A stretch of 4,064 bases of DNA from a virus (IMGVR_UViG_2534682060_000012:1-4064); one strand, 5' to 3'. Counted from the first letter of the stretch, positions 1 to 4,064 are shown. Notes: a model not told the origin generated them from the letters alone. Numbers and translations are program-made.

Positions 1-246
1 ACCGGAATCAGCCAGCAGGCTGGCGAACAGGAGGCCACGCAGCCGGACAGCGTGATAGCCGAAAATTACGCGCGTGTTGTTGCTGAGGTGATGCGCCGTG
101 ATGGTATTGAGCTTAACGGCGTGGATATGCGCAACATACGAACCAGAGTCCTTGAGTTGCTGGCATACCGTCGCCGTTCTCAACAACGGAGGGAGAGCGC
201 GAAAAGTACTTACCAGTGGAAGAAGCCGGAACGACTGCGGCGGTAA
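1..246 (+). CDS. 3' end of an unidentified protein-coding gene (5' part lies upstream of the window); hydrophilic, Arg/Lys-rich C-terminus
   Basis: Frame 1 is open from nt 1 to TAA at 244-246 (82 codons: TGISQQAGEQEATQPDSVIAENYARVVAEV...YQWKKPERLRR). Codons in the first half look enterobacterial, but the last ~35 codons are rich in rare Arg/Ile codons (ATA, CGA, AGA, AGG, CGG). I do not recognise the protein. Coding status rests only on frame length and partial codon bias. Confidence 0.4.
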   Translation, partial: TGISQQAGEQEATQPDSVIAENYARVVAEVMRRDGIELNGVDMRNIRTRVLELLAYRRRSQQRRESAKSTYQWKKPERLRR

Positions 247-264
247 CTTGCTGATATTCCCGAT

Positions 265-547
265 AACGCAAAATTGCGTTGGCTGGTGGGTGAGTTGCAG
301 ATTTGCAACTCGACCATGAAACTACGGAAACTACCCGTAGTTTGGGTAGTAAGAGTAACACCCAGATTTTGGGGCTTACTCGCGATACCCAAATAAAGGG
401 TATCGGTGGAAGAAATATCGTTTCTCATATGTAAGTACCGAGGGCGGAATTCCGCCTTCGGTTACTTATTGTGCTCATGCACAGGGAGGGGCGGGTCAAA
501 TCTCTGTACCCTGACGTCTTCAGGACTGCCCGCCCCATCGATTTTTT
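265..547 (+). other. Hairpin-dense noncoding segment: eight consecutive stem-loops ending in a T6 tract; candidate structured RNA (3'UTR-derived or sRNA) or DNA-level binding/recombination region
   Basis: Read directly: A) AACGCA/TGCGTT 265-280. B) GAGTTGCA-GATT-TGCAACTC 292-311. C) AAACTACGG/CCGTAGTTT 319-343, with an alternative CTACCC/GGGTAG pairing 331-349. D) GAGTAA...CCCA/TGGG...TTACTC 353-381. E) CGATACCC-AAATAAA-GGGTATCG 383-405. F) ~38-bp imperfect palindrome 431-469 with a perfect 14-bp core GGCGGAATTCCGCC 443-456. G) GTGC/GCAC 471-482. H) GGGGCGGG 488-495 / CCCGCCCC 529-536 with inner CCTGA/TCAGG 510-524, then TTTTTT 542-547. Confidence 0.5.
488..547 (+). terminator. Candidate intrinsic-terminator-like element closing the structured segment
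   Basis: 8-bp all-GC stem (GGGGCGGG 488-495 / CCCGCCCC 529-536) followed 5 nt later by T6 (542-547). The loop is large (33 nt, itself containing a 5-bp inner stem) and the gap before the T-tract is atypical, hence low confidence. Confidence 0.35.
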
Positions 548-802
548 ATACCCGCGAAAAATGAAAAACGCTTCACGCTGGTGGGCCTGATGCCGATATG
601 GGGAGCCGCATACCGGAGAATATCCACCAGCACGGCAACAGCAGAATAGCCCCGACACAGAAAAACCACGAATATGGGGTTTTTGTTATGGCATGGTCAT
701 GATGACCGCCCCTGCTCTGAATGGTGGAAATCACCACGCAGATCATCCACCAGCTTCATGACGGATAGCCGGAAAATGATAATGATTAAAGCGTGTTGAT
801 CT

Positions 803-832
803 TTGTTCGCGGTTGTTCGATATTGTTCGTGA
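803..832. repeat. Three helically phased 10-bp imperfect tandem repeats (TTGTTCG core at 803, 813, 823)
   Basis: TTGTTCGCGG / TTGTTCGATA / TTGTTCGTGA read directly; the 7-nt core is identical in all three units at exact 10-bp spacing. Confidence 0.85.
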
Positions 833-835
833 AGC

Positions 836-859
836 GGTGTAGTTAATGGTGTAGTTAAT
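836..859. repeat. Perfect tandem duplication of the 12-mer GGTGTAGTTAAT
   Basis: GGTGTAGTTAAT at 836-847 and again at 848-859, directly abutting, 10 bp upstream of the candidate -35 element. Confidence 0.9.
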
Positions 860-869
860 ATCACTGTTT

Positions 870-897
870 TTGACGGGCTTGTTATTTGCAACATAAT
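870..897 (+). promoter_or_regulatory. Candidate sigma70 promoter for clpS-clpA
   Basis: TTGACG (870-875), 16-bp spacer, CATAAT (892-897); AT-rich surroundings; about 135 bp upstream of the clpS ATG. Assigned by motif only; the transcription start is not known from this sequence. Confidence 0.4.
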
Positions 898-1032
898 GAA
901 AAATAAAGACTAATTAACTAAATGATATAAATGATAGTTATCTATCATGTGGAGTAGATTGGTCAGGCAAATAAGCTCTTGTCAGCGGCAGGGCGTTCTG
1001 CCGATAACCGTAACCGAAGATGATAACTGACA

Positions 1033-1353
1033 ATGGGTAAAACGAACGACTGGCTGGACTTTGATCAACTGGCGGAAGAAAAAGTTCGCGACGCGCTAAA
1101 ACCGCCATCTATGTATAAAGTGATATTAGTCAATGATGATTACACTCCGATGGAGTTTGTTATTGACGTGTTACAAAAATTCTTTTCTTATGATGTAGAA
1201 CGTGCAACGCAATTGATGCTCGCTGTTCACTACCAGGGGAAGGCCATTTGCGGAGTCTTTACCGCCGAGGTTGCAGAAACCAAAGTGGCGATGGTGAACA
1301 AGTACGCGAGGGAGAATGAGCATCCATTGCTGTGTACGCTAGAAAAAGCCTGA
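1033..1353 (+). CDS. clpS: ClpS, adaptor of the ClpAP protease (N-degron recognition)
   Basis: 106-aa ORF, ATG 1033, TGA 1351-1353. The translation [51 protein letters not shown]... matches ClpS as I remember it for E. coli. It lies 30 bp upstream of clpA, the canonical operon arrangement. Confidence 0.95.
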
Positions 1354-1383: not shown

Positions 1384-3660
1384 ATGCTCAATCAAGAACT
1401 GGAACTCAGTTTAAATATGGCTTTCGCCAGAGCGCGCGAGCACCGTCATGAGTTTATGACCGTCGAGCACTTGTTACTGGCGCTGCTCAGTAACCCATCT
1501 GCCCGGGAGGCGCTGGAAGCGTGTTCTGTGGATTTGGTTGCGCTCCGTCAGGAACTGGAAGCCTTTATTGAACAAACCACACCCGTTCTGCCTGCCAGTG
1601 AAGAGGAGCGCGACACACAGCCGACGCTGAGTTTTCAGCGTGTACTGCAACGTGCGGTCTTCCATGTCCAATCCTCCGGTCGCAATGAGGTAACCGGTGC
1701 AAACGTTCTGGTCGCTATCTTTAGCGAACAGGAGTCGCAGGCGGCATATCTGTTGCGTAAACATGAAGTCAGCCGTCTCGATGTGGTGAACTTTATCTCT
1801 CATGGCACGCGTAAAGACGAGCCGACACAGTCTTCTGATCCTGGCAGCCAGCCAAACAGCGAAGAACAAGCTGGTGGGGAGGAACGTATGGAGAATTTCA
1901 CGACGAACCTGAATCAGCTTGCGCGCGTGGGCGGAATCGACCCACTGATTGGTCGTGAGAAGGAGCTGGAGCGTGCTATTCAGGTTCTCTGCCGTCGCCG
2001 TAAAAACAACCCGCTGCTGGTGGGGGAATCTGGTGTCGGTAAAACCGCGATTGCGGAAGGTCTTGCCTGGCGAATTGTTCAGGGCGATGTGCCGGAAGTG
2101 ATGGCTGACTGTACGATTTACTCTCTCGATATCGGTTCTCTGTTAGCGGGCACTAAATATCGCGGCGACTTTGAAAAACGTTTTAAAGCGTTGCTCAAGC
2201 AGCTGGAGCAGGACACTAACAGCATCCTGTTTATTGATGAGATCCACACCATTATCGGTGCGGGGGCAGCGTCTGGTGGCCAGGTCGATGCGGCTAACCT
2301 GATCAAACCGTTGCTCTCCAGCGGTAAAATTCGCGTAATTGGTTCGACAACCTATCAGGAGTTCAGCAACATTTTCGAGAAAGACCGTGCTCTGGCGCGT
2401 CGCTTCCAGAAAATTGATATTACTGAACCGTCGATCGAAGAAACTGTTCAAATCATCAATGGCCTGAAACCGAAGTATGAAGCGCACCACGACGTGCGTT
2501 ATACCGCAAAAGCGGTGCGTGCAGCGGTAGAGCTGGCGGTGAAATACATTAACGATCGTCATCTGCCGGATAAAGCCATTGACGTTATCGACGAAGCGGG
2601 CGCTCGCGCACGCCTGATGCCGGTAAGCAAACGCAAGAAAACCGTTAATGTGGCGGATATTGAGTCCGTGGTGGCCCGTATTGCGCGCATTCCAGAGAAG
2701 AGTGTTTCTCAGAGTGACCGCGATACCCTGAAAAACCTCGGCGATCGCCTGAAAATGCTGGTCTTCGGTCAGGATAAAGCCATTGAGGCGCTGACTGAAG
2801 CCATTAAGATGGCGCGTGCAGGTTTAGGTCACGAACATAAACCGGTTGGTTCGTTCCTGTTTGCCGGCCCTACCGGGGTCGGGAAAACAGAGGTGACGGT
2901 ACAGCTTTCGAAAGCGTTGGGCATTGAGCTGCTGCGCTTTGATATGTCCGAGTATATGGAACGCCATACCGTCAGCCGTCTGATTGGTGCGCCTCCGGGA
3001 TACGTTGGTTTTGATCAGGGAGGTTTGCTGACTGATGCGGTCATCAAGCATCCACATGCGGTGCTGTTGCTGGACGAAATCGAGAAAGCGCATCCGGACG
3101 TGTTCAATATTCTGTTGCAGGTGATGGACAACGGTACGCTGACCGATAACAACGGACGCAAAGCGGACTTCCGTAACGTGGTGCTGGTGATGACCACCAA
3201 CGCCGGGGTACGTGAAACTGAGCGTAAATCCATTGGTCTTATCCACCAGGATAACAGCACCGATGCGATGGAGGAGATCAAGAAGATCTTTACACCGGAA
3301 TTCCGTAACCGTCTCGACAACATTATCTGGTTTGATCATCTGTCAACCGACGTGATCCATCAGGTGGTGGATAAATTCATCGTCGAGTTGCAGGTTCAGC
3401 TGGATCAGAAAGGTGTTTCTCTGGAAGTGAGCCAGGAAGCGCGTAACTGGCTGGCCGAGAAAGGTTACGACCGGGCAATGGGCGCACGTCCGATGGCGCG
3501 TGTCATCCAGGACAACCTGAAAAAACCGCTCGCCAACGAACTGCTGTTTGGTTCGCTGGTGGACGGCGGTCAGGTCACCGTCGCGCTGGATAAAGAGAAA
3601 AATGAGCTGACTTACGGATTCCAGAGTGCACAAAAGCACAAGGCGGAAGCAGCGCATTAA
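1384..3660 (+). CDS. clpA: ClpA, AAA+ unfoldase/ATP-binding subunit of the ClpAP protease
   Basis: The ORF track starts at TTG 1369, but the ATG at 1384 is preceded by GGAGG (1374-1378) and gives a 758-aa protein beginning [20 protein letters not shown], which is the ClpA N-terminus as I recall it. Two AAA+ modules are present: Walker A GESGVGKT (nt 2023-2046) and GPTGVGKT (nt 2866-2889), Walker B-like ILFIDEIH and [10 protein letters not shown], and the ClpP-docking IGL tripeptide (nt 3232-3240). Stop TAA 3658-3660. Confidence 0.97.
1876..1890 (+). promoter_or_regulatory. clpA: Internal in-frame translation initiation site of clpA (Shine-Dalgarno plus ATG of Met169), expected to give the shorter ClpA65 form
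   Basis: GGGGAGG at 1876-1882, 5-nt spacer, ATG 1888-1890 in the clpA frame (codon 169). The context is nearly identical to the main start (GGGGGAGG, 5-nt spacer, ATG 1384). Internal initiation at Met169 of E. coli clpA is established knowledge; whether it is used here is inference. Confidence 0.6.
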
Positions 3661-3873: not shown

Positions 3874-4021
3874 GTTCACTGCCGTACAGACAGCTTAGAA
3901 ATCGACGGGGTGCGGTAAAACCTTTGCGAACGCGTTCACTGCCGTACAGGCAGCTTAGAAATTCACAGGTAACATACTCCACCCGCCCACCATGTTCACT
4001 GCCGTACAGACAGATAAAATG
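3874..4021 (+). CRISPR. Short type I-F (Ypest/Csy-type) CRISPR array with no cas genes in the window: 3 repeats, 2 spacers
   Basis: Repeats: R1 3874-3901 GTTCACTGCCGTACAGACAGCTTAGAAA; R2 3934-3961 GTTCACTGCCGTACAGGCAGCTTAGAAA, the canonical I-F repeat as I recall it; R3 3994-4021 GTTCACTGCCGTACAGACAGATAAAATG, degenerate at its 3' end. Spacers: S1 3902-3933 TCGACGGGGTGCGGTAAAACCTTTGCGAACGC; S2 3962-3993 TTCACAGGTAACATACTCCACCCGCCCACCAT. The 28/32-bp periodicity is exact. Orientation is + from the repeat polarity (3' CTTAGAAA handle) and the distal degenerate repeat. Confidence 0.9.
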
Positions 4022-4023
4022 CG

Positions 4024-4052
4024 AAAAAAAAGCTCGCACTTTCGTACGAGCT
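4024..4052 (-). terminator. Rho-independent terminator for a minus-strand transcript entering from beyond the window end (possibly also bidirectional)
   Basis: On the + strand: A8 (4024-4031), stem AGCTCG (4031-4036) / CGAGCT (4047-4052) with inner pairs A4038-T4045 and C4039-G4044, then CTTCTTT. On the minus strand this reads as hairpin followed by T8, the classic intrinsic terminator. The gene it terminates is outside the window; from memory of E. coli synteny it would be a tRNA-Ser or infA, which is unverified here. Confidence 0.6.
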
Positions 4053-4064
4053 CTTCTTTAAATA

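Follow-up and report, generated by a model that had tools for sequence, protein, structure and literature searches.

SaPIbov5 and P4 are satellites that carry the cos of their helper phage and depend on the helper terminase. Among the Gram-negative PICIs, the prototype is EcCICFT073 of E. coli CFT073, which was demonstrated to be helper-dependent (Fillol-Salom et al. 2018, PMC6092414). Its packaging-specificity slot holds RppA (c1503) (PMC6739421, 2019), and the PICIs of E. coli strains IHE3034 and 18098 encode TerS (Fillol-Salom et al. 2018, PMC6092414). The capsid-forming PICIs compared here (EcCIEDL933 type, bioRxiv 10.1101/2022.09.08.507074) integrate upstream of clpS, as does the island described below, and encode portal and head completion/connector proteins together with HNH and both terminases, the small one of the P27 type.

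The window, by which we mean the whole 4,064-nt stretch analysed (IMGVR_UViG_2534682060_000012:1-4064), was followed up mainly over the 1032 bases 5′ of clpS, and its features are listed below. It contains the right end of an island only, and the structure of the island was read from genomes identical over 1-1032. In AR_0077 we found a 10,732-bp element between yljB and clpS, with cspD and yljB intact to its left. The integrase at the left end is a tyrosine integrase with Phage_integrase and Arm-DNA-bind_3 domains. The other genes encode AlpA (Phage_AlpA, E=3e-16), a primase (DUF927, E=4e-47) that also matches the phrog_1139 DNA primase, Icd-like proteins, DUF4222, SSB, a second AlpA-like HTH protein, a lambda-E-type capsid protein, a lambda-D-type decoration protein and a small terminase (TerS) of the Nu1 family, and a 94-aa gene stands last. 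Annotation, domain and PHROG searches of the 10.7-kb island revealed no portal, protease, large terminase, tail, lysis or repressor/Cro genes. The island has sequence features that mark a Gram-negative PICI: a size within about 10-15 kb, a left-end integrase, att direct repeats, an AlpA activator with a rightward primase/replication module, an incomplete phage structural, tail and lysis set (capsid-E, decoration-D and Nu1 homologues only), packaging signals (an SfV-type cos, and a lambda cosN with a Nu1-type TerS) and collinearity with the proven member EcCICFT073. Judged by sequence, it belongs to the known family of EcCICFT073-type PICI satellites, and window 1-930 is very probably the right-hand end of an integrated copy.

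Features of the window (positions counted from its first base)
Feature	Position	Strand	Basis or remark
Island last gene, 3′ part (81 codons and stop)	1-246	+	ORF list and annotation
Hairpin-rich spacer	247-483	none	RNA fold, repeats, conservation
123-nt multi-hairpin unit	287-409		Conserved in many PICIs
Terminator-like hairpin	437-462		13-bp, GC-rich; terminator scan
cos site, SfV/SfI/SfII/ST64B/phiP27 type	484-566	+	Phage-record comparison
8-bp inverted repeat GGGGCGGG / CCCGCCCC	488-495 and 529-536		Inside cos
Cohesive-end sequence TGCCCGCCCC	527-536		Exact match to SfI
Spacer between cos and att arm	567-740		Repeats, sequence, distribution
Chi octamer GCTGGTGG	577-584		Inverted pair with 624-631
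Chi octamer CCACCAGC, complement of GCTGGTGG	624-631		Inverted pair with 577-584
attP-derived P′ arm	741-930	none	Repeats shared with integrase side of attL
TTGTTCG, three copies	803, 813, 823		P′ arm
GGTGTAGTTAAT, two copies	836, 848		P′ arm
Sigma-70-like promoter (predicted)	870-897	+	TTGACG-16-CATAAT, 10/12 matches; promoter scan
Inverted TAGTTAAT	913		P′ arm
attR core ATGATAGTTATCTATCAT	931-948		7-bp inverted repeat around TTAT; K-12 comparison
clpS leader	949-1032		Native chromosome, outside island
clpS	1033-1353	+	Native; ORF listing and database comparison
clpA	1384-3660		Native; ORF listing and database comparison
Three type I-F CRISPR repeats	3874-4021		Native, 3′ of clpA; Rfam CRISPR-DR4

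An Rpp that redirects the helper small terminase, which is not universal in the family, was not found in the island: BLASTP gave no RppA match, and when the AlpA-like HTH protein, TerS and the last-gene product were each compared with PDB sequences, none matched the solved RppC entries or anything else Rpp-like, TerS and the last gene giving chance matches only. The AR_0077 copy has an Icd-like pseudogene and a frameshifted SSB (L001 12261-12591 and 16532-16955), and some island copies may be decaying.

The element was inserted through the action of its tyrosine integrase at an 18-bp core that lies 85 bp before clpS, and cspD and yljB were thereby moved about 10.7 kb away from clpS. On the model of EcCICFT073, a helper phage would induce the AlpA-type activator, the island would excise, circularise and replicate by means of its DUF927 primase, and the concatemers would be cleaved at cos and enter particles made by the helper.

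The attachment site bears on the insertion itself. The attB core in K-12 overlaps the stop codon of yljB and is identical to attR, and 18-bp direct repeats bound the island in AR_0077. Core position 12 is T in attL and attP and C in attB and attR; in the sequences compared, this one-base polymorphism is distributed as site-specific exchange predicts. Furthermore, in two independent metagenome contigs window 1-948 runs straight into the integrase side through the T-form core; this is the attP junction of an excised circle or of a tandem copy, and it suggests that such copies exist in natural samples. The junctions lie at L014 5040-5110 and L021 1320-1400 (JGI sample 3300045988; Logan run SRR14630139). 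Copies of TTGTTCG and GGTGTAGTTAAT were also found between attL and int, and the P′ arm repeats are conserved in EcCICFT073 and in capsid-forming PICIs at the clpS site; we infer that they are putative arm-type sites for integrase and excisionase. The predicted promoter within the arm faces attR. When the island is integrated its target is clpS, at a distance of 136 bp, and after excision and circularisation it would read over attP towards int. In the capsid-forming PICIs at the clpS site its −35 hexamer is conserved and its −10 hexamer is weaker.

The yljB/clpS site is a shared PICI hotspot, although neither clpS nor cspD was named as a PICI att site in the literature searched. Capsid-forming PICIs were seen integrated at the same core in four loci (L023, L024, L026 and L027, about 4000-5230), and the assembly collection has 1079 indexed blocks with the exact sequence of their last gene. 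In one assembly (L016 1944-3400), the island attR core is followed by an opposite-strand integrase in place of clpS, perhaps from a further element inserted in tandem there.

The first-pass annotation had described the window as opening with the tail of an unrecognised plus-strand ORF with rare codons towards its end. The ORF is genuine, with 81 residues and a stop within 1-246, and contains nine rare codons (ATA twice, CGA twice, AGA, AGG and CGG three times), five of them within the last 19 codons. Its identity can now be supplied: it is the conserved last gene of PICI satellites. The product is a 94-aa protein (WP_024187550.1 in AR_0077) that matches phrog_1561 (function unknown) with E=2e-50 and has homologues in 981 clusters, mostly from E. 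coli; genes of this type stand last in classical and capsid-forming PICIs alike. No Pfam, PDB or fold match was obtained for it. The AlphaFold2 model, with a mean pLDDT of 66.5, has three helices, and Foldseek against viral structures returned nothing below E=0.37. A set of 80 related IMG/VR loci was defined by the presence of a homologue of this gene, and included 30 classical PICIs with a Nu1-type TerS, 29 capsid-forming PICIs and 4 loci with Rpp. In GTDB genomes, a search with the 94-aa protein alone found no related loci, and a search with the alignment found only six, none of which had either of the cos types discussed below.

The structured segment that had been noted behind this ORF is also real. 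The spacer after the last gene folds to −105.7 kcal/mol, as against −62.8 ± 5.0 for shuffles (z = −8.6). Its 123-nt unit is 91-95% identical across many PICI loci, both classical and capsid-forming, occurs twice in L084 and lies at a distance from the last gene that varies among PICIs. Within the unit are a 20-bp palindrome around GATT, where most relatives have GATC, four AAACTAC heptamers (two direct and two inverted) and a GATACCC/GGGTATC palindrome. Among 13 distinct but highly similar copies of the unit, compensatory changes were seen at one of 38 predicted pairs. The spacer is not a described RNA family: it matched nothing in Rfam or in phage records, and a search of the whole window against Rfam at E≤1 gave, within 1-1032, only a chance snoRNA match at 695-744. 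As a working guess held with low confidence, it may combine an operon terminator with protein-binding palindromes.

The right half of that structured segment proved to be of a different kind, namely a phage cos site. When 50,697 phage records were searched, only window 484-566 matched, with E values down to 2e-28. These 83 nt are 92-95% identical to SfII, SfI, SfV, SfIV, ST64B and E. coli relatives; for phiP27 the identity is 83%. The cohesive ends of SfI were experimentally determined as TGCCCGCCCC (PMC3636060); the end of the SfI record coincides with window base 536, and the cos-site annotated in phiP27 aligns to the same 10 nt. The upstream GGGGCGGGTCAAATC box, the T-run and the ACCCGCGAAA box of the phages are retained as well, so the segment has both the 10-nt cohesive end and the conserved flanks of an SfV/HK97-type cos. 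SfV-type phages encode HNH, a Terminase_4 small terminase and then an HK97-type large terminase, and the counterpart of the segment is the whole intergenic space between the HNH gene and terS; the island match ends at the edges of this element, about 30 nt right of the cut. Whereas the cos of SfV, SfI, SfII, ST64B and phiP27 lies between HNH and terS, that of the island lies between the last gene and the att arm, and the island, unlike these phages, is without HNH, P27-type small terminase and large terminase.

Between this cos and the att arm, the inverted pair of Chi octamers is located 40-95 bp right of the cut site, and the minus-strand Chi would be oriented to stop RecBCD entering from the left end of cos. 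Many PICIs have kept the block 573-616, which has several mosaic breakpoints next to it. Two minus-strand ORFs (573-746 and 697-894) had no PHROG match, overlap the arm repeats and were treated as non-coding.

Phages of the SfV/SfI/ST64B/phiP27 type cut cos with HNH, a P27-type small terminase and an HK97-type large terminase. The cos would allow such phages, or a capsid-forming PICI with the same machinery, to package the island, and we judge the chances that it is functional to be roughly even. In favour of function, the extent of the match is precise and the cut site exact. The main alternative, which we rate somewhat below even, is that the site is a non-functional passenger that arrived, by recombination with a capsid-forming PICI using the same integrase and att site, together with the right-end module (last gene, spacer and att arm), packaging proceeding only through a lambda-type cos and the Nu1-type TerS of the island itself. 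The capsid-forming PICIs at clpS share the last gene and the att arm, which offers an easy recombination route, and two capsid-forming loci (L084 and L107) carry segments of 247-566 with 88-97% identity. The module was found in only 7 of 52 related loci, counting those with enough downstream sequence: 4 of 20 islands with Nu1-type TerS, 2 of 20 capsid-forming PICIs and 1 of 3 others. It is therefore spread over terminase classes and has been shuffled independently of the terminase genes. A one-base cosN change in some copies of the site, and the presence in the island of a complete lambda-type cosN and TerS of its own, also agree with a passenger. Against it, the phage match spans exactly the HNH-to-terS intergenic element, the 10-nt cohesive end is exact, and the flanks are nearer to those of phages than to the commonest cos of capsid-forming PICIs, which is only 82% identical to that of the island. 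Against the main reading, most island-bearing genomes gave a single match to the query, so that in these no SfV-type prophage cos accompanies the island.

The second cos lies outside the window. An exact lambda cosN, GGGCGGCGACCT, was located at L001 19017-19028, about 980 bp before window base 1. It lies 145 bp upstream of the island terS in lambda-like flanks, and its counterpart in EcCICFT073 is cos1. Compared with N15 gp1 the island TerS shows 47.5% identity, and with lambda Nu1 37%; it is unrelated to the small terminase of SfV-type phages. By sequence comparison, then, the island has two co-oriented cos sites of unrelated types. The lambda-type cos with the Nu1/N15-type TerS would serve lambda/N15-like helpers. 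A possible, though in our view rather unlikely, extension is that the island is a two-helper satellite whose SfV/HK97-type cos depends on the HNH, P27-type small terminase and large terminase of another phage family or of a co-resident capsid-forming PICI. If so, the island would parasitise the packaging machinery of another satellite, and PICIs could be directed to new helpers by exchange of the cos module as a cassette. Possibly new is the joint presence of an island-encoded Nu1-type TerS with one cos of lambda type and one of SfV type.

The class of element was also considered against other candidates. That 1-930 borders the remnant of a defective lambdoid prophage and not a satellite is very improbable: the lambda-like E, D and Nu1 homologues, the lambda cosN and the pseudogenes among the island genes agree with such an origin, but 10.7 kb without portal, protease, tail, lysis, large terminase or repressor/Cro genes, a gene order that follows EcCICFT073 gene for gene, and the recurrence of the same architecture in dozens of IMG/VR loci led us to reject it. 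A P4-like satellite was rejected because no annotation or family match for Psu, Delta or Sid was found in the island; a P2 cos query had zero matches when up to four mismatches were allowed. The lack of portal, protease, connectors, HNH and large terminase likewise removed a capsid-forming PICI from consideration.

Having retained an integrated EcCICFT073-type PICI, we asked how common the insertion is. Window 1-1032 is 100% identical in 13 complete E. coli genomes, AR_0077 included, and at least 80% of it is present in 168 of 5426 complete genomes; for window 1-926 the figure is 155 of 5426. A 202-bp probe across the K-12 yljB-clpS junction showed the junction to be uninterrupted, as in K-12, in 5058 of the same 5426 genomes. 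Hence the site is occupied in roughly 7% of genomes, and about 3% have the right end as in the window. The DNA of 1-930 is accessory, of a known kind.

These results largely bear out the first-pass annotation, which had proposed from the missing cspD that 1-780 might be accessory DNA. A tblastn search of the whole window with K-12 CspD gave zero matches even at E≤10, and the ORF listing contained no minus-strand ORF of cold-shock character within 1-1032. The K-12 layout given there was correct: in MG1655, 322 bp separate the clpS start from the divergent cspD upstream of it, and macB lies farther out. The 24-codon yljB, of which the annotation was unaware, sits between cspD and clpS there. The extent was underestimated, since the foreign DNA covers 1-930 and similarity to K-12 resumes at about 927-931. 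Of the proposed replacement or insertion, insertion was right (10,732 bp in AR_0077) and cspD has not been replaced: in AR_0077 it is intact beyond the other end of the island, some 11 kb upstream of clpS and outside the window. Integrase and att-site signatures were looked for and both were present in the AR_0077 island. The contrary idea, that 1-1032 is conserved core sequence upstream of clpS and the K-12 layout had been misstated, is virtually without probability, having nothing in its favour apart from the last 100 bases (about 927-1032 is common to K-12, and some part of the query occurs in 5425 of 5426 genomes), and is refuted by the K-12 comparison, the place of cspD in MG1655, the presence of 1-926 in only about 3% of genomes and the junction left uninterrupted in 93%.

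The chromosome to the right of attR is native. The clpS leader and clpS (949-1353) are 99.5% identical to K-12 and were found in 5425 of 5426 complete E. coli genomes. The CRISPR repeats beyond clpA scored 50.1, 40.4 and 20 bits with Rfam CRISPR-DR4, and copies 1 and 3 have a G-to-A change in the stem; no cas genes lie within the window. The three repeats resemble the orphan CRISPR locus between clpA and infA of E. coli. At 4015-4064 there is a minus-strand hairpin followed by a T-run, with weak, sub-threshold Rfam matches to MicC and the Thr leader. In AR_0077 a tRNA-Ser gene begins just past the window end, and the hairpin probably serves as its terminator.

For annotation, the island explains a strain-specific break in the well-known cspD-clpS synteny and marks the yljB stop codon as an integration hotspot for classical and capsid-forming PICIs in roughly 7% of complete E. 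coli genomes. The outward promoter-like site and the insertion 85 bp from the clpS start could alter clpS-clpA expression in carriers. The locus also offers a natural case of a classical PICI with its own Nu1-type TerS and lambda-type cos together with a near-exact cos of HNH-dependent phages. If both cos sites work, the helper range of PICIs would be widened through cassette exchange at the right end, and such a wider range would bear on the transport of virulence and defence genes between strains by PICIs.

The island can finally be set beside the known systems. Of the 12 island proteins tested by BLASTP, 10 matched EcCICFT073, and nine matched their counterparts in the same order. The common order is int, alpA, icd-like, DUF4222, primase, small ORF, SSB, E-type capsid, D-type decoration, two small genes and last gene, and both elements end with the conserved last gene, a non-coding tail and attR. 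At the protein level the two are 36% to 97% identical, with 77% for the integrase, 97% for Icd, 55% and 54% for the capsid and decoration proteins and 71% for the last gene; the primases differ in their C-terminal part. In each element a lambda-type cosN precedes the packaging-specificity gene, and the same arm-type repeats stand beside attR. However, the slot that holds RppA in EcCICFT073 is filled in the island by a full-length Nu1/N15-type small terminase, and the att site is yljB/clpS in place of roxA/phoQ. The second cos of EcCICFT073 is an inverted lambda-type cosN, and that of the island is of the unrelated SfV/HK97 type; EcCICFT073 has two lambda-type cos, and an SfV-type site was not found in it.

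With the capsid-forming PICIs at clpS, the island shares the P′ arm (92% identity) and window 1-307 and 741-1032 (92% identity). The last gene of capsid-forming PICIs is 89% identical to that of the island and has a homologous HNH-type cos region downstream of it, and some of these elements carry the 247-566 module of the island. Unlike them, the island has only the lambda-E-type capsid protein, the decoration protein and the Nu1-type small terminase. Since classical cos-bearing islands are without HNH and large terminase, the most economical use of the cos would be the strategy of SaPIbov5 and P4. The likeness lies in that strategy, a copy of the helper cos, whereas the lineages and helpers differ; beyond SaPIbov5 and P4, the island has a small terminase of its own and a second cos of another type.
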